A DNA stretch of 41,687 nucleotides from a virus (Duplodnaviria; Heunggongvirae; Uroviricota; Caudoviricetes): IMG/VR virus record IMGVR_UViG_2585427754_000009. The stretch is one strand, 5' to 3'. The translations under genes were made by a program, and so were the position numbers. Below are positions 1 through 7,500 of the stretch, one piece after another. Under the pieces are notes generated by a model. It was not told the origin of the DNA and made no database searches. It saw only the letters and a program-made list of their open reading frames with translations. Position 1 is the stretch's first letter. Each line of letters opens with the position of its first letter.

Positions 1-1164
1 TTACACATCATTAGTACCTTCCTTATTTTTTGACTGGGACAAATTTGGGACCGATGGGTTCAGGATCGAGTCTATTTGCCGTGCGTGTTCGGTAAGGTGA
101 TTAGGTGCAAGGTGAGCATATCGACGAACCATTTCGATAGACTCCCAGCCTCCCATTTCCTGTAACACTGACAACGGGACTCCGGCTTGAACCAGCCAAC
201 TTGCCCAGGTGTGTCTCAAGTCGTGAAATCTGAAATCATCAATACCAGCCCGTCTCAGCGCCGCTTTCCAGGCTGTGTTTGCGTCATACCGCATCTTCCT
301 TACTGTTGGCGCTTTCGTTCCGTCTGGTTTGGTACAGCTTTCCTTGTACACAAATACCCAACGGTGATGATTCCCGATTTGTTTTTTCAATACGCGACAT
401 GCAGTATCATTCAGCGCAACGCCAATTGCGCGGTTTGATTTACTCTCTTCCGGGTTTATCCATGCCACCCGGCGCTGCATATCTATTTGTTGCCATTCAA
501 GGTTGATGATGTTCGAGCGTCTTAAGCCTGTTGCCAGTGCAAATTCAACAACAGACTTTAATGGCTCCGGACATTCATCAATCAGCCTTTGTGCTTCATG
601 GGGCTCCAGCCAGCGGATCCGTTTATTCTTTGGTTGAGGCACTTTAATAATTGGTGCCTTATCCAGCATTTTCCATTCACGCTCTGCGGCTCTTAGTAGG
701 GCCTTTATAAATGAAAGATGCGTAGCCTTCGTTGCAACGGACGCTGGTTTTGGCGTGTATTCTGGAACAGGTTTCCCTTTTTTTCTGCATGCTTCTGCCC
801 TGAGTTTCCAGTTTTCCTCATGACGCCGGTTCGTCATTTTCTGCATTGCTGAATAAATTTTTGATTCAGTAATGTCTCTTAGTTGCATTCCTGCGAAATG
901 TTGAAGCCAGAATCCGATCCGGCTTTTGTCATCGTCCAGTGATTTTTTATGTGCTTTCTCTTCAAGCCACCTGACACACGCTTCCTCGAACGTTATATCA
1001 GGTATTTCACCAAGTTTGCTGACCCGCCATGCTTCAGCCTTTAGCTTGTCATGGAGTTCTGTCGCCTGCCTTTTGTCCTTTGTTCCAAGAGACTGTTTAA
1101 ATCTTTTACCGTTCGGCAATGTGAAACTGGCGTACCATATTTCACCTCTGCGGAAGAGTGACAT
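1..1164 (-). CDS. int: Tyrosine integrase, P22/SfV-type
   Basis: 387-aa ORF with stop at 1-3. N-terminus [14 protein letters not shown] and C-terminal HDLRHTWAS...MVRRYAHL (R-H-R-Y recombinase signature). Recognised from memory as P22-type Int. Last gene of the leftward operon; 5' end overlaps xis. Confidence 0.95.
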
Positions 1165-1696: not shown

Positions 1697-2058
1697 TATG
1701 CTCCAGCCTCCGGTGCTTTTGGCATTACTGCCCAGTGAGTGATATTGACGTTTTCAAGGTCCCCGACCTGAAATGTCCACTGCCATTCTCCGGTTTCTTT
1801 TTGTCCCCAGGTGTACCAGAGAGAACGCCAGCCAATTAGCCAGCCTTCTCCGTTAGCATCGAATAACAAAACACTTTCATTTGCTGGTGGCAGTTCAGTT
1901 GACACTGGTATTACTTTGTTTTCCTGTGCTGCACATTTAGCTTCAAGCGCATCGAATTTACGCACCAGGTATTCAGCATCTGTTTCATTTACTTTCAGAT
2001 CTCGCGGTACACATCTCCCACGAAGAAACCCTTCCATTTCGAAAACATTCATGCGCAT
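1696..2058 (-). CDS. Hypothetical early protein (YfdS-like, 120 aa)
   Basis: ORF in the same leftward operon; overlaps the upstream HD-domain gene by 10 bp. Confidence 0.7.
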   Translation of the reverse strand: MRMNVFEMEGFLRGRCVPRDLKVNETDAEYLVRKFDALEAKCAAQENKVIPVSTELPPANESVLLFDANGEGWLIGWRSLWYTWGQKETGEWQWTFQVGDLENVNITHWAVMPKAPEAGA

Positions 2059-2585
2059 TTGCGTAACTCCGATAACTCGTTAAAGCGTTCCATAAACATC
2101 CCGTAGGCATGGCCCGGTGCCAGTGGAATCACGTTGAACATCTCTGTTGCCGGGATACCTTCCAGTACAGGCCAGAAAGAGCCATCATCAAGCCCGAGAT
2201 CGCGGCGTTCGGTTGCCAGCATGATGAGATCGGCATATTTCACGGGCGTACTCATAACTGGGGGTAACCCGTATTTCTCACGGATTACGGCGTCTATTTT
2301 TTCTTCCATTTGTTTATAGTCAGGAAGAAGGCGTTTCAGTGGTGCGGGAATGTCCTGGCAATACGCTTCTGTTGCATCATGCATTAACGCTTCAAAAGCA
2401 AATTCCTGCGGCACCAGCTGGCTGCAAAGAACCGCATGTTGGGCGACGCTGTAGAAGTGCGAAAGATGACCGGCAAAGCGACAGATATTTGAAAGGGAAA
2501 CCGCGATATCGTTAATATCGATGTCGTCTTTATTTATCCTGTCATAATAAAAATGCTTCCCGGAAAAAGTTTTAATAAATGACAT
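2049..2585 (-). CDS. HD-domain phosphohydrolase (YfdR-like 5'-deoxynucleotidase, 178 aa)
   Basis: Internal start MSFIKTFSG with GGAG 7 nt upstream (longer ORF reaches 2612). H..HD metal-binding motif (LMHDATEAY) and further His/Asp residues typical of the HD superfamily. Confidence 0.8.
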   Translation of the reverse strand: MSFIKTFSGKHFYYDRINKDDIDINDIAVSLSNICRFAGHLSHFYSVAQHAVLCSQLVPQEFAFEALMHDATEAYCQDIPAPLKRLLPDYKQMEEKIDAVIREKYGLPPVMSTPVKYADLIMLATERRDLGLDDGSFWPVLEGIPATEMFNVIPLAPGHAYGMFMERFNELSELRKCA

Positions 2586-2712
2586 TTTGTTCTCCACGTA
2601 TATGCGCTGCACCGCGCTGAATTCTGGTAAAAAGAATCCCTCACCATCCGGCGATTATTGAGTAAATTACGTTTCCATAAATGCCCCCGCAGGGGCATTT
2701 GCAGTAATGAAA

Positions 2713-3537
2713 TCAGGCGGTGAAAGTACCAATAAAGGTTTCTACTTTGCTGTCCTTGAATTTCTCAACAAGCAGATCACGAAATTCGTTAGCCATTTCT
2801 TCCTGCACCGCCTCCAGCTGAATAATGCGCAGAACCAGTACAGGACGATCGCCAGTGATAATACTGAGGCGTAATTTAAACGGACGTTCTTTCAGACCTT
2901 CAAACGGAACGCATTTAAATTCAAATGCCACTGGCATAATGTCTTTGGTCTTCGCTTCGACAGACTCCATCAGGGAGCGTTTGCCGCTGAAGTCATTATC
3001 TTCAAAATCAGCGGTCTGGTTTGCTTCAATCGTGATTTTACGGACAGCCGCAGCCGCTTTTGTTGCCTGAATAGCGTCACCATTAGCATCAAAGCCCACA
3101 AGATAGTCGGCCCAGTCTTCAATCCATTCTGCCAGTGACTTCTGGGAGTTACGCTCGCCGTTAACAGACAACAGAGCAGAGAACGGTGCTGTCTTTTTCA
3201 GTTTGAGTGTGGCGGTGTTATCTGCGTGACCTGGTTCATCAATAGTACCCAGGTTAAGCACACTGACGGCACGCATATTATCAGCATCGATAAAGCAGCG
3301 GGTGCCTTCATCTGCAAGATCTTTAGAATAACGGGTAAAGTCATCGATGCTGGCAGTGGAAAGCGCACCACGGAAACGGAAGCGATTTAAATTAAATTTT
3401 TCCAGATCATGAATGCGGAAATTCTCAGGCAATGCCACAGCATCGGCACCAATCTTACTGATAATTTCATTAACACCCTGAGCAGAAATAAGGGCATGGA
3501 TTTGATTAATTGCGGTTGCGTCTAAGTTCTGAGACAT
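2713..3537 (-). CDS. DUF2303 / YfdQ-like protein (274 aa)
   Basis: 274-aa ORF beginning [14 protein letters not shown]; recognised from memory as the YfdQ family of CPS-53-like prophages. Same leftward operon. Confidence 0.75.
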
Positions 3538-3602: not shown

Positions 3603-3965
3603 TTAACGACCTGCTGCGCGGAGTTTTCCGTCAGGTTCACCGGCAAGAGTCAGTAACTGTCCCTGGTCTTCCTGCAGAATAGTCAGGCGACCACCGCGAT
3701 TGACATACATCGGCGTTTCGGTGGTGTCTTCTTCGGAAATTTTCCCGCGGTTAGTCGGGCGAACATATGAGAGTTTGTGTTTGATTTTCACACGGTTCTC
3801 ATCAAATGGTTCGATTTCCAGGTTGAGTGAGACCTTACCTTTGGTTTTCGTGTTCATCACACCGGAAGCGACTTCACTGAGAACTGCGCCGATTTTGGTT
3901 TCAAATACGCCGCCGTCCAGCTCCCCGATAAATGCCTGCACATCAGTACTGCGTTCGCTAGCCAT
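3603..3965 (-). CDS. Hypothetical early protein (YfdP-like, 120 aa)
   Basis: Start chosen at MASERSTDVQ (ATG at 3963-3965) because AGGAG lies 9 nt upstream; the ORF-track start at 4214 lacks an RBS and runs into structured non-coding DNA. Confidence 0.7.
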   Translation of the reverse strand: MASERSTDVQAFIGELDGGVFETKIGAVLSEVASGVMNTKTKGKVSLNLEIEPFDENRVKIKHKLSYVRPTNRGKISEEDTTETPMYVNRGGRLTILQEDQGQLLTLAGEPDGKLRAAGR

Positions 3966-4433
3966 TTTGCTGCTCCTCATCATATCGACCCTGCAAGGCC
4001 GATTAGTTTCTCCACAAAACAGAGAAGAACACCTGCGGTGGCAGCCGCCCGGATGGATTGGGTTATGAGCCCGTCGTCCGGTGATGCTCTTCTCTGTTTT
4101 GTAAAAAGGACGGTACCAGCCGGAAGCAAGAGTACAAGCTGGTACCGCCAGGACTACACACAGCATAAAGTTGTGGTGCCGGGTGCCTCCCGGTGCCTGG
4201 CGAAGGTTGCACACCAGGCGGGTGGGTATCTACAGAAGGTCGACTGTCAGCCTCAACCTTAACCCGCGTGCGCTGAGCCGCATTCACCACAACGCTAAGA
4301 ATTCTCTCTGGTTGAAAATACTTAGCTGTTATGTGCCTGCTTTTAGCCACATCAGGCGAGGTGGACCTGGTTATTCCCCAACAACAAGGATTCGGTTAAT
4401 CTGGTTATCCCCAACAACGCAAAAGGAAAAGAA

Positions 4434-4868
4434 ATGTCCGGTAATATCTACACGCTGTACAAATCCCACTGTGAAAATGTTGGAAAGTATCGGGGCATTG
4501 AAATCAGTGGGGTAGTGTCATCAGTCGAAATAAGCAAAGTCGAATCAAGGGCAACATTACTTACTCTTCTGGACCTTGTCTTACATGAGCACCGGAAGAA
4601 ATTCGGCACTCCCTATAATCAGTTGAATGGGAAAAAGGCTCTGGTTCACCTTATTCTGATGAAGCATCACTGGATGCCAAAACAGATTAATGAGATGAAA
4701 TTTGATGAACTTCTTCTTTCAATTCAGGATGAACTCACACTTGATAAAATAAGCGTAACCGCCCAGAAATTTTTAGATTATCGAGACTGGAGATCACAAA
4801 TTCATCACTTTGATGATTTTGACGAAAATGAATGGGATCCTAATTTGTCTGCACAATATCTAAAGTAA
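4434..4868 (+). CDS. Hypothetical protein, 144 aa, no family recognised
   Basis: ORF with AAGGAAAAG Shine-Dalgarno-like sequence 5-13 nt upstream of the ATG. Opposite orientation to the surrounding leftward operon. Preceded by two 18-19-bp direct repeats. Confidence 0.5.
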   Translation: MSGNIYTLYKSHCENVGKYRGIEISGVVSSVEISKVESRATLLTLLDLVLHEHRKKFGTPYNQLNGKKALVHLILMKHHWMPKQINEMKFDELLLSIQDELTLDKISVTAQKFLDYRDWRSQIHHFDDFDENEWDPNLSAQYLK

Positions 4869-4983
4869 CATCCTGTGATAAAACCGTGATTTCCTGATCC
4901 AGTTTTTTTAAGGAGTCTATTATTTCCTGTCGATAAGACAGCACTTCACGAAGCTGGTTTATAGCTGCCAGCTTCTTTGCCAT
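4840..4983 (-). CDS. Small ORF (47 aa), possible remnant of a leftward-operon gene
   Basis: In the pre-insertion reading frame a stop lies 2 codons upstream of the IS target site, so only a 47-aa ATG-initiated ORF (MAKKLAAINQLREV...) is possible. Weak RBS. Confidence 0.25.
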   Translation of the reverse strand: MAKKLAAINQLREVLSYRQEIIDSLKKLDQEITVLSQDVTLDIVQTN

Positions 4984-5031
4984 CCACTCGTAAATTTCCT
5001 CATTTGTGTATCCGGGCGCGACGATTTTGGG

Positions 5032-5040
5032 TTCTGTTTT
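5032..5040. repeat. Target-site duplication (TTCTGTTTT), left copy
   Basis: Identical 9-mer at 6097-6105 directly flanks the other IS end. Confidence 0.9.
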
Positions 5041-6096
5041 GGCTTTGTTGAATAAATAAGATTTCGTGCGAACGACCCTGTAGCTGGCTGGATTTTCAGG
5101 CAATACGCACGCTTTCTGGCATCCCAGCCTTTGTCATCCTGTTCAACGCACGCACCATGGCCATAGCTTCCGCTACCTGACCATCGTAGTCACGCAGCGT
5201 CAGTGAATCTCCCAACAACTGCTTCATTCTGTACATTGCCGTTTCCGCTATCGAGCGACGGTTATATTCCGTTGTCCATTTCCACCGTGCATTGCTTCCG
5301 CTCAGCCGCTGATTAGCAACGGCACGGTTGCGGTCTGCGTACTCACCGGGCCAGTAACCTGCTCCTTTTCGGGGAGGAATAAGCGCGCTGATTTTTTTGC
5401 GGCGCAGTTCATCGTGACAGAGCCGGGTATCGTAAGCCCCGTCTGCCGCGGCTGCCCTGATTTTTCTGTGAGTCTGCCGGATAAGGCCCGGGAAGGCTTC
5501 TGAGTCCGTGACGTTATTCAGCGACAGGTCTGCACAGACAACTTCATGTGTGTTGCTGTCAACAGCAAGATGCAACTTTCGCCAGATACGACGGCGCTCT
5601 TTGCCGTGCTTTCTGACTTTCCATTCGCCTTCACCAAAGACCTTCAGCCCGGTGGAATCAATCACCAGGTGTGCGATTTCACCCCGGGTGGACGTTTTGA
5701 AACTGACATTAACCGACTTTGCCCGCTTACTGACACTGGTGTAATCCGGGCAGCGCAACGGAACGTTCATCAGGGCAAAAATGGAATCAATAAAACCCTG
5801 CGCAGCCCGCAGGGTCAGCCGGAATACGCGTTTAATCACCAGAACGGTGGTGATGGCGAGATCAGAATAGCGCTGGGGCCTTCCTCGTGATGAAGGCGTT
5901 GCCGACTCATACCAGGCCTGAATCGCTTCATCATCCAGCCAGAAAGTGAGGGAGCCACGGTTGATGAGAGCTTTGTTGTAGGTGGACCAGTTGGTGATTC
6001 TGAACTTTTGCTTTGCCACGGAATGGTCTGTGTTGTCGGGAGGATGCGTGATCTGATCCTTCAACTCAGCAAAAGTTCGATTTATTCAACAAAGCC
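5041..6096 (-). mobile_element. IS903-like insertion sequence (IS5 family), 1056 bp
   Basis: Terminal inverted repeats GGCTTTGTTGAATAAAT(A/C) at 5041-5058 and 6079-6096 (17 of 18 identical). Single transposase ORF. Flanked by a perfect 9-bp direct repeat. Confidence 0.92.
5096..6064 (-). CDS. IS903-family transposase
   Basis: 322-aa ORF ...QKFRITNWSTYNKALINRGSLTFWLDDEAIQAWY... recognised from memory as IS903/IS102 transposase (DDE). True start may be a few codons inside the ORF. Confidence 0.92.
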   Translation of the reverse strand: MKDQITHPPDNTDHSVAKQKFRITNWSTYNKALINRGSLTFWLDDEAIQAWYESATPSSRGRPQRYSDLAITTVLVIKRVFRLTLRAAQGFIDSIFALMNVPLRCPDYTSVSKRAKSVNVSFKTSTRGEIAHLVIDSTGLKVFGEGEWKVRKHGKERRRIWRKLHLAVDSNTHEVVCADLSLNNVTDSEAFPGLIRQTHRKIRAAAADGAYDTRLCHDELRRKKISALIPPRKGAGYWPGEYADRNRAVANQRLSGSNARWKWTTEYNRRSIAETAMYRMKQLLGDSLTLRDYDGQVAEAMAMVRALNRMTKAGMPESVRIA

Positions 6097-6105
6097 TTCT
6101 GTTTT
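6097..6105. repeat. Target-site duplication (TTCTGTTTT), right copy
   Basis: Identical to 5032-5040. Confidence 0.9.
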
Positions 6106-6359
6106 GTGCATTTCACACCTCCTCAAGTTATCAGTTACTTGTTGATGGGGACCAGATTGTTAAAGAGCTAAGCGTCCTGTAGGGCGCTTTTTTGTTGCTA
6201 ACGAATCATCCTGGACTTCATATGCCCCAGGCGGCTACTTCGTGGGCGTCCTGCCTGTTCGTTTTTGACATTTACTGACTGCTTACGACACATGCACCGT
6301 GTTGCAACCAGATTTTGTTGTAATCCTGTAGTTGGTCTGGAACAAAAGATAAAATTAAA

Positions 6360-6396
6360 TTGCTAGATATGCAAGTGATATTTGCGGGATATGCAA
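6360..6396. promoter_or_regulatory. Putative OL operators (two 15-bp sites)
   Basis: TTGCTAGATATGCAA (6360-6374) and TTGCGGGATATGCAA (6382-6396) match TTGCGTGATAAGCAA in the cI-cro intergenic region at 13 of 15 positions; TTGC...GCAA dyad. Confidence 0.5.
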
Positions 6397-6449: not shown

Positions 6450-7142
6450 TTAATTATGTCTCTTAAGGGTTTGCGACTGACTGATTAAGACCTTTCCAAA
6501 GACCATGAATCGGTGTTCGTTTTCGCTAGTAATTCCCCATTCACGGTAAATCTGGTTATCAGAAATCACCAGCAGTTTGTCAGGAATCATTTGAAGTCTT
6601 TTAACGTATATTTTGTCATCAAAACCAAAGACATATATACCATCACCATCAAACTGATTGATGCTGACATCAACGAAGATGAGATCTCCTGGCTCAATGG
6701 TTGGACACATACTGTCCCCACGAACGTTGATAACTTTGATGTGATTGGCTGGTCGTCCGCCGAACATTGATACAGCATTATCAGTTCTGTATTCGATGGC
6801 ATGAATCACATCAATGACATCACCGCCCTGGATAAGGCCATTTCCCGCACTGGCACTGATATCCAGCATTTCAATACGGAACACATCCTTCACCTGCGCA
6901 ACATCCTCATCATTACTGTTTTTATATACAGTATTACTTTTGTGGGCAGAGGTAAAGAGATCAGCAATATCAACACCTAAGCTCTTGGCAATATTACTCA
7001 GTGTTTGTTCGGTAAATTGTTTTTGCTTACCCGTTTCTAAGCGCGAGATGTTCGCCGCATCTACTCCTATTGCTTCAGCGAGATCGGCGATTTTCATGTT
7101 CTTCGCTTGGCGAAGTTGTCTGACTCGGTTTCCTATGTTCAT
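6450..7142 (-). CDS. cI: CI-type repressor (HTH_XRE + S24 LexA-like peptidase)
   Basis: N-terminal HTH (KIADLAEAIGVDAANISRLETGK), Ala-Gly cleavage site (SASAGNG), catalytic Ser (VRGDSMCPT) and Lys (VKRL). Divergent from cro. Confidence 0.9.
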   Translation of the reverse strand: MNIGNRVRQLRQAKNMKIADLAEAIGVDAANISRLETGKQKQFTEQTLSNIAKSLGVDIADLFTSAHKSNTVYKNSNDEDVAQVKDVFRIEMLDISASAGNGLIQGGDVIDVIHAIEYRTDNAVSMFGGRPANHIKVINVRGDSMCPTIEPGDLIFVDVSINQFDGDGIYVFGFDDKIYVKRLQMIPDKLLVISDNQIYREWGITSENEHRFMVFGKVLISQSQTLKRHN

Positions 7143-7162: not shown

Positions 7163-7225
7163 TTGCGTGATAAGCAAATCAACTTGCGCAAAATAATTGC
7201 GTGAAATAACATGCATAACGCGCAA
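7163..7225. promoter_or_regulatory. OR operator region between cI and cro
   Basis: TTGCGTGATAAGCAA (7163-7177), palindrome TTGCGCAA (7184-7191), TTGCGTGA repeat (7197-7204), and a reverse-strand match TTGCGCGTTATGCAT (7211-7225). Sits between divergent cI and cro starts. Confidence 0.55.
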
Positions 7226-7239
7226 TATTTGGAGGGCGT

Positions 7240-7500
7240 ATGCAATCACCATTACGAAATGTGCGTAAGGCGCATGGTTTCACTTTGCAGCATGTTGCTG
7301 CGGGTGTTCAAGTCAATCCAGCGACGTTGAGTCGTATTGAGAGGCTGGAGCAGATTCCATCTATCGAGCTTGCAGAACGTTTAGCCAATTTTTTTAAGGG
7401 TGAAGTCAGCGAAATGCAGATTCTTTATCCGGCACGTTTTCAATCTAGCCAAAACCAGAATGGGTTTAAACCACAGGAACAGGAGGTGAACCGTGGGTAA
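7240..7500 (+). CDS. cro: Cro-like HTH_XRE regulator
   Basis: 86-aa ORF with HTH (FTLQHVAAGVQVNPATLSRIERLE); GGAGGG 4 nt upstream of the ATG; divergent from cI. Confidence 0.85.
   Translation: MQSPLRNVRKAHGFTLQHVAAGVQVNPATLSRIERLEQIPSIELAERLANFFKGEVSEMQILYPARFQSSQNQNGFKPQEQEVNRG

Follow-up and report, generated by a model that had tools for sequence, protein, structure and literature searches.

The 144-codon reading frame at 4434-4868 of the prophage analysed here (IMG/VR record IMGVR_UViG_2585427754_000009; "the window" below means this whole stretch of 41,687 nucleotides) is a real gene for a soluble protein with a confidently predicted fold, not a chance ORF. We call it gene A. Together with gene B, a small gene that converges on it and overlaps its 3' end, it very probably constitutes a genuine accessory cassette that is expressed in lysogens. 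As a tentative model, A would be a lysogen-expressed moron that works by exclusion or abortive infection and is countered by B in the lytic phase.

Gene A belongs to a widespread Enterobacterales family

The frame is present as the initial annotation described it, on the plus strand from an ATG at 4434 to a stop codon at 4866-4868, and the ribosome-binding site that was thought plausible can be read as AAGGA at 4423-4427, six nucleotides before the start. Its description as an orphan did not survive, since the product is a member of the named and widespread ECs1072 family. It scores 157.8 bits against the NCBIfam model NF033230 ("ECs1072 family phage-associated protein"; cut-off 70), with residues 4-144 aligned to profile positions 2-142 of 142, which makes it a full-length member, and it matches the profile of PHROG 5286 over residues 1-144 of 144 (E 1.5e-90). 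Shigella phage SfIV encodes the identical protein (100%) as gp36, and five further phage records contain ORFs with the same sequence; the exact sequence is present on at least 1000 contigs, and of 5426 complete E. coli genomes, 410, or about one in 13, have a near-identical locus. A contig search with the single protein returned identical copies only. An exhaustive HMMER search gave 65 family representatives at 50% identity clustering, with identities down to about 25% and lengths mostly of about 145-155 residues. The named members are restricted to Enterobacterales and reside, besides E. coli, in prophages of Shigella, Salmonella, Klebsiella, Citrobacter, Enterobacter, Proteus, Edwardsiella and Xenorhabdus. 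In an alignment of 47 sequences, three residues (M1, H72 and W134) never vary, and four more (R54, L64, G66 and A69) reach a conservation of at least 90%. One member with 34% identity lies between a phoX-like and a DUF1275 gene in a chromosomal region that is not prophage, with no B beside it (L007/L008 4001-4438).

AlphaFold2 models A as an all-alpha protein with high confidence (pLDDT 94.4, pTM 0.89). The remote-homology and structure prediction that had been advised for this ORF thus produced a confident model and no relative: searches of PDB and BFVD with the model, a sequence profile search of PDB and a Pfam search were all without a match. It had also been stated that neither a catalytic motif nor a family could be recognised. 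The former still applies, as no catalytic or toxin fold was recognised in A, and neither was a DNA-binding fold; the latter gives way to membership of NF033230 and PHROG 5286. The defence models of PADLOC-DB v2 assigned 0 families to A, to B or to any of the three further cargo proteins described below, and a literature search by accession or family identifier found nothing on gene A. Both family entries were catalogued before this work, under a name that carries no function, and for the member in Salmonella phage ST64B an accessory role had been considered earlier (PMC7067206).

Gene A is antisense to the early-left operon of a lambdoid prophage

The window is a lambdoid prophage of the SfI/SfII/SfIV type, and its nearest phage record is Escherichia phage vB_EcoM-689R6. 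The features that bear on gene A are the following.

1-1164, minus strand: int
left end, together with int, minus strand: xis-like gene
2049-2612, minus strand: yfdR-like gene
2713-3537, minus strand: DUF2303/YfdQ-like gene
about 3603-3968, minus strand: yfdP-like gene
4100-4323, minus strand: STnc100/PasD-like prophage sRNA (Rfam RF02076), adjacent to the leader of gene A and pointing away from it
4334-4418, plus strand: portable leader and putative promoter block, a conserved stretch of about 85 nt with two direct repeats and a probable -10
4423-4427, plus strand: Shine-Dalgarno sequence AAGGA of gene A, 6 nt 5' of the ATG, from sequence reading
4434-4868, plus strand: gene A, encoding a soluble, all-alpha protein of 144 aa from the ECs1072 family, whose fold has no known relative
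4840-5041, minus strand: 3' portion of B, the partner gene (phrog_1744; intact product 68 aa), convergent with A
5041-6096, minus strand: IS903-group (IS5 family) element that splits B (Pfam DDE_Tnp_1_5 and DDE_Tnp_1)
6097-6124, minus strand: displaced 5' end of B, with RBS GAGGAGG at 6118-6124, ATG at 6109-6111 and codons 1-5, from junction mapping
6170-6195, plus strand: intrinsic terminator, from a terminator scan on L001 (6906-6925 there; same sequence in the window)
6360-6396: OL-like operator pair, TTGC-N7-GCAA twice, which marks PL just downstream of cI, from a pattern search
6450-7142, minus strand: cI-like repressor (S24/HTH)
7240-7500, plus strand: cro
beyond cro: ymfL

The pattern TTGC-N7-GCAA occurs only three times in the 41.7-kb window, namely at 6360 and 6382, past the 3' end of cI, and at 7163, the OR between cI and cro. 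Since operators therefore flank cI on both sides, OL and PL lie immediately to its left, so that gene A is antisense to the PL early-left operon and B would be the first PL gene in an intact phage. This agrees well with the initial annotation, which had placed the ORF antisense among minus-strand early-left genes (the yfdP-, yfdQ- and yfdR-like genes, xis, int and cI are all on the minus strand) and in the rex/sieB position left of cI; the sieB gene of a Hafnia phage is likewise antisense to N and cIII. In the IS-free phage L001 the plus-strand terminator lies 59 nt past the start of B, and the A transcript should consequently be antisense to all of B. Occupancy of the slot varies among close relatives: SfIV and vB_EcoM-689R6 carry gene A, and SfV and SfII share the flanking DNA without it. 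Gene A thus shows the presence or absence at one position among close relatives that characterizes a moron.

The sRNA that lies back to back with the leader aligns to RF02076 over the full length of the model (41.5 bits, below the gathering score of 47; E 2.5e-7). No Rfam match at gathering level was obtained anywhere in the window, nor for the homologous sRNA-region DNA in e14 and SfV. The STnc100/PasD-like family is described in bioRxiv 10.64898/2026.05.13.724894. In E. coli K-12 the homologous e14 DNA is annotated as the protein gene ymfH, and it probably specifies an RNA rather than a protein. Phage SfV has matches to isrK and C4 antisense RNA above the Rfam gathering score (L013 5984-6172). 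Between the yfdP-like gene and the sRNA there are long inverted repeats at 4014-4038 and 4078-4102 (25-nt arms, 84%) and at 4111-4120 and 4138-4147 (10-nt arms, 100%); mEp460, cdtI and many Stx2 phages share the segment 3969-4150 at about 95% conservation. A 26-nt stretch at 4169-4194 is 96% identical to L004 3582-3607 in a Klebsiella phage; in both cases it lies upstream of A or its homologue, the two cassettes being located at different genome positions.

The leader of gene A precedes several cargo families

The conserved block upstream of gene A extends from TGCCTG at 4334 to the second of two direct repeats, CTGGTTATTCCCCAACAAC at 4367-4385 and CTGGTTATCCCCAACAAC at 4401-4418, which share the form CTGGTTAT(T)CCCCAACAAC. 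A probable -10 is found at 4395-4402 (GTTAAT/TAATCT), and the hexamer aligned with GTTAAT (4395-4400) reads TATAAT in four leader variants. A pattern scan of IMG/VR for both repeats returned at least 120 stretches, and the block is also present in Kp4884-1 and L011. Among the matches listed, four cargo families follow this leader, with the ATG within 17-21 nt: the A family at 44 loci, phrog_1244 (40 loci; a 171-aa protein with a coiled coil and a zinc ribbon), phrog_6315 (150-164 aa, two-TM; 16 loci, with the first called ATG farther downstream) and phrog_10348 (78 aa; 9 loci). Examples of the latter three are found in the IMG/VR loci L015-L134, in L014 (3001-3627) and in L011 (4711-5278); none of these three families has a Pfam, PADLOC or NCBIfam assignment. 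One leader in front of several unrelated cargo families indicates a variable cargo slot. The advised check on whether the gene is conserved together with the repeats upstream of it showed that the repeats belong to a conserved leader of about 85 nt, which is not exclusive to A and precedes three other cargo families.

A diverged copy of the leader, with TATAAA/TAAAAT at the place of the hexamer, precedes sieB (phrog_1301, E 1e-110) in Hafnia phage Pocitis76, where sieB is antisense to N and cIII. We infer that the block is a sieB-type promoter and leader in which repeat 1 lies near the -35 position and repeat 2, in the 5'UTR, at about +1; the predicted start of the A transcript is at about 4408-4410. 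No candidate upstream of gene A passed a scan for consensus sigma-70 promoters. The sole sigma-70-like site near the locus (4680-4653, minus strand; TTGGCA-16-CAGAAT, 9/12) is internal to gene A, on its complementary strand, and the count of such sites is within chance expectation. Inspection by eye revealed a hairpin or pseudoknot candidate in the leader (GCCTG...CAGGC, CCAC...GTGG), for which one variant has a compensatory-looking change, too little for a claim of structure.

Gene B is interrupted by an IS903-group element

A small ORF at 4840-4983 had been noted to converge with and overlap gene A. The convergence and an overlap of 29 nt (4840-4868) are real; the ORF itself is not a gene of 47 codons and instead represents the 3' remnant of the 68-aa gene B (phrog_1744). 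In the IS-free allele, found in E. coli H2 (L001) and SfIV (L002), a 68-aa B converges on A with the same 29-nt overlap. The window differs by an IS903-group element, bounded by perfect 17-nt inverted repeats and a target-site duplication of 9-10 bp, TTCTGTTTT(G), which has inserted after codon 5 of B; the displaced 5' end, which retains the strong RBS, now reads MHKTEGFVE*. This element is annotated as an IS5 family transposase in E. coli genomes. B is thus destroyed in the window and A is intact. Since xis, int and the other remaining early-left genes are now separated from PL/OL by the insertion, induction or excision of the prophage may be impaired. Among the complete E. coli genomes searched, none covers more than 94% of a query across the left IS junction (4200-5100).

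The AlphaFold2 model of B consists of a 12-residue N-terminal peptide followed by a single long helix at residues 13-65 (pLDDT 87.6), giving a single-helix protein of the coiled-coil type. A Pfam search with B gave no match. A ribbon-helix-helix fold was considered for B and ruled out on account of the one continuous helix in the model and this lack of a Pfam match.

Divergent A-B pairs occupy two moron sites

Unannotated full-length homologues of A with about 30% identity are present in ST64B (NC_004313; L003 3281-3715) and in Klebsiella phage KPP5665-2 (L004 3847-4291), the former matching PHROG 5286 with E 2e-17. Both are located between the Q antiterminator and holin genes, on the strand opposite to the operon, and both converge with a small coiled-coil gene, sb50 (phrog_3501). 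In L006, L010, L011 and the P0045 contig, homologues of A lie left of cI in the same convergent arrangement. The overlap between the two genes measures 29 nt in the window, 56 nt in L011, 71 nt in ST64B, 95 nt in both L006 and the Klebsiella phage, and 185 nt in the P0045 contig. All B proteins have in common the N-terminal motif E-P-x-[IV]-x-x-G-x-T-x-E-E-x-x-x-W followed by a helix; that of L010 is longer and has the same motif. The B protein of L011 matches both phrog_1744 and phrog_3501, and thereby bridges the two B families. The cassette is hence found at two classical moron sites, left of cI and in the Q-holin interval, always antisense to the lytic operon, and the linkage is kept at identities of about 30% and about 20%.

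Among the matches listed, B follows A at 42 of the 42 leader-sharing IMG/VR loci that have enough flank, a figure that overstates the independent support because many of these loci are near-identical; behind the other cargo families B is found at 6 of 33, 0 of 16 and 0 of 8 of the loci listed. Independent support for the linkage comes mainly from the divergent pairs. The two genes also occur apart: A has no recognisable B in L007/L008 and in L009, where it is next to an unrelated convergent ORF, and B is found without A in 6 loci among the matches listed. On balance, we regard a specific functional coupling of A and B as fairly likely. The sources that we could read contained no description of the conserved convergent cassette or of its two insertion sites.

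In ST64B, a PR'-like promoter (10/12 match) immediately follows Q and is directed into B. Two terminators were located there, one on the minus strand between the start of A and the holin gene and one on the plus strand, 45 nt past the stop codon of A and inside B.

A homologue of gene A is expressed in lysogens

The Salmonella gene STMMW_20121 (2090066-2090500) and its neighbours map one to one, with a constant offset, onto the ST64B homologue of A and sb50. This gene of ST64B has its own promoter and its own TSS, is antisense to lytic genes and was considered a candidate accessory gene (PMC7067206). Its transcript amounts to 60-270 TPM in 16 of 17 conditions in lysogens, alongside about 0.1-18 TPM for the holin, lysozyme and Q genes of the same prophage in non-shock conditions (PMC7067206, Table S5). 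The proposal that the ORF might be an accessory gene expressed in lysogens is supported by this homologue. B of ST64B (STMMW_20131) reaches 22-258 TPM (PMC7067206, Table S5), and its level of about 100 TPM in lysogens is probably due to the PR'-like promoter being constitutive. As ST64B B is expressed in lysogens, it is not strictly a lytic-phase gene. From InSPI2 to two shocks that induce ST64B, A goes from 269 to 113 and 105 TPM and B from 108 to 148 and 258 TPM (PMC7067206). For ECs1072 itself, a transcript was weakly detected on an array of uninduced Sakai and responds to growth transition (PMC2241611). In K-12, sieB-ydaF and ymfI-ymfJ are both listed as convergent excludons on the basis of RNA-seq (PMC12288877).

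Discussion

We propose that gene A would be a moron with its own leader/promoter (4334-4418) and terminator, inserted backwards in a PL operon that cI represses, and would thus be made in the lysogen while the lytic genes around it are silent. Together with the convergent, 3'-overlapping B, it may form a mobile two-gene cassette, in which A would be a soluble superinfection-exclusion or abortive-infection effector directed against incoming phages or a host target. B, the first gene after the lytic promoter (PL here, PR' in ST64B), could then serve as the counter-factor. Upon induction, lytic transcription would make B and also run antisense through A, and the lytic growth of the prophage itself would in this way escape A, following the logic of P22 SieB/Esc/sas RNA with unrelated parts. 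Both the exclusion function of A and the role of B as its antagonist are inferred. Several results weigh against this model: no match to a defence family, no catalytic or toxin fold, the solubility of A, the lack of a scoring sigma-70 promoter upstream of it, the lysogenic expression of B in ST64B, the loci with one gene but not the other, and the window itself, where A has stayed intact with B destroyed and no essential need of A for B is apparent. Prophage cargo slots near the immunity region have repeatedly yielded defence genes, such as rexAB, sieB and bstA; an exclusion or defence role of A is conceivable, if somewhat doubtful.

At each site the cassette directly follows a lytic promoter, in antisense to it, and its two genes change reciprocally under stress that induces ST64B. 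Such a pattern could also reflect a module for the control of lysogeny and not for defence, in which A would damp or time lytic development or excision and B would relieve this effect after induction; whether STMMW_20121 is "accessory or regulatory" was left open by Owen et al. (PMC7067206). We nevertheless judge this explanation unlikely, since the slot is variable, with SfV and many relatives lacking A and other cargo standing behind the leader, which is atypical for core regulation. In addition, A has no recognised DNA-binding fold, and it also occurs alone in a chromosomal region that is not prophage (L007/L008). Alternatively, A might be a factor of lysogenic conversion that acts on host physiology (for example surface structures, stress or virulence regulation) and not on phages, and B would be an unrelated early gene that happens to overlap it. 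A small, soluble, helical protein whose homologue is expressed in nearly all growth conditions of the host would suit such a role, as would the response of ECs1072 to growth transition, and ST64B, the Sf phages and the Stx-phage relatives all carry conversion genes. However, the persistence of the A-B linkage at about 30% and 20% identity and at two genome positions argues that B is not incidental, and the leader is common to sieB, which makes a conversion factor improbable as well.

The tight linkage, the overlap and the joint mobility of two small genes are also reminiscent of a prophage-stabilising addiction module of the toxin-antitoxin kind, with A as the toxin and B as the antitoxin or the reverse, and with control at the RNA level through the 3' overlap. 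Control by convergent 3' overlap is known in some type I systems, namely txpA/RatA and bsrG/SR4. We hold this to be very unlikely here, because the window has a fully (100%) intact A beside a destroyed B (MHKTEGFVE*), L007-L009 have A alone, B stands without A in 6 loci among the matches listed, neither protein has a match to a toxin or antitoxin family or fold, and both products are ordinary soluble proteins instead of a membrane peptide and an RNA. A type II toxin-antitoxin system was ruled out by the convergent orientation of the genes, the lack of a family or fold match and the disruption of B with A intact.

An exclusion moron with a counter-factor would have its parallel in the SieB/Esc/sas system of P22 and lambda and in sieB-ydaF of the Rac prophage. 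Like A, sieB occupies the slot left of cI, is antisense to the PL operon and, at the Hafnia phage locus, follows a related leader. Ranade and Poteete are said to have reported in 1993 that sieB is expressed in lysogens and that its self-protection logic is tied to antisense RNA. A small convergent ORF is found in both cases, and sieB-ydaF is listed as an excludon (PMC12288877). In contrast, A and SieB have no sequence similarity: A has no match to PHROG 1301 (SieB), and a tblastn search of the window with the Hafnia SieB returned nothing below E 0.4. Furthermore, A is soluble and SieB resides in the membrane, with maximum hydropathies over 19 residues of 0.84 and 2.92, respectively, and B is a gene of its own on the opposite strand, whereas Esc derives from SieB as an in-frame fragment. 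A resembles a sieB-slot moron but, on these grounds of sequence and membrane features, is not a member of the SieB family. It also differs from RexAB, whose genes are co-transcribed with cI from PRM, in being on the strand opposite to cI and in having no PADLOC or Pfam match.

BstA of the Salmonella prophage BTP1 offers another point of comparison: its gene, likewise accessory, neighbours cI, shows constitutive expression in lysogens at levels like those of cI, and was found in the same transcriptomic study as STMMW_20121. From the work of Owen et al. in 2021, BstA is reportedly an abortive-infection protein with a self-immunity element. Unlike A, it is co-directional with cI, is about 300 aa long and unrelated in sequence, and relies on the DNA element aba for self-immunity.

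Taken together, A and B could represent an unrecognised two-gene prophage system, for defence or for self-restraint, with a fold that lacks known relatives and an antisense coupling to the lytic promoter, and the "sieB-type" leader could mark, in enterobacterial lambdoid prophages, a cargo hotspot of at least four uncharacterised families (PHROGs 5286, 1244, 6315 and 10348), each a candidate for an exclusion function; taken as a whole, we rate this broad interpretation as rather unlikely. The sources accessible to us contained no description of a sieB-type leader shared with three cargo families or of the lack of a fold relative. The A family combines a confidently predicted fold that lacks relatives with, judging by its homologue, expression at repressor-like levels in lysogens. 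The pairing with B and the portable leader turn an anonymous ORF into a small system that is directly testable, and the leader provides a sequence handle for mining further lysogen-expressed cargo.

The cassette may also be an excludon: the ORFs converge with an overlap of 29-227 nt, and the predicted terminators would put the A transcript across B. A comparable layout exists at ymfI/ymfJ of e14, where a plus-strand gene left of the cI-like ymfK overlaps a small convergent minus-strand gene by 63 nt and the flanking STnc100-like DNA ("ymfH") is homologous to that of the window. Homology of A and B to YmfI and YmfJ was ruled out by BLASTP and by their assignment to different PHROGs. Inside the A/B overlaps of ST64B (L003, about 3685-3695) and of the Klebsiella phage (L004, about 4250-4260), we observed the palindrome TGGGATCCCA; read on one strand for A and on the other for B, it specifies W-D-P in each protein, and its W corresponds to the invariant W134 of family A.
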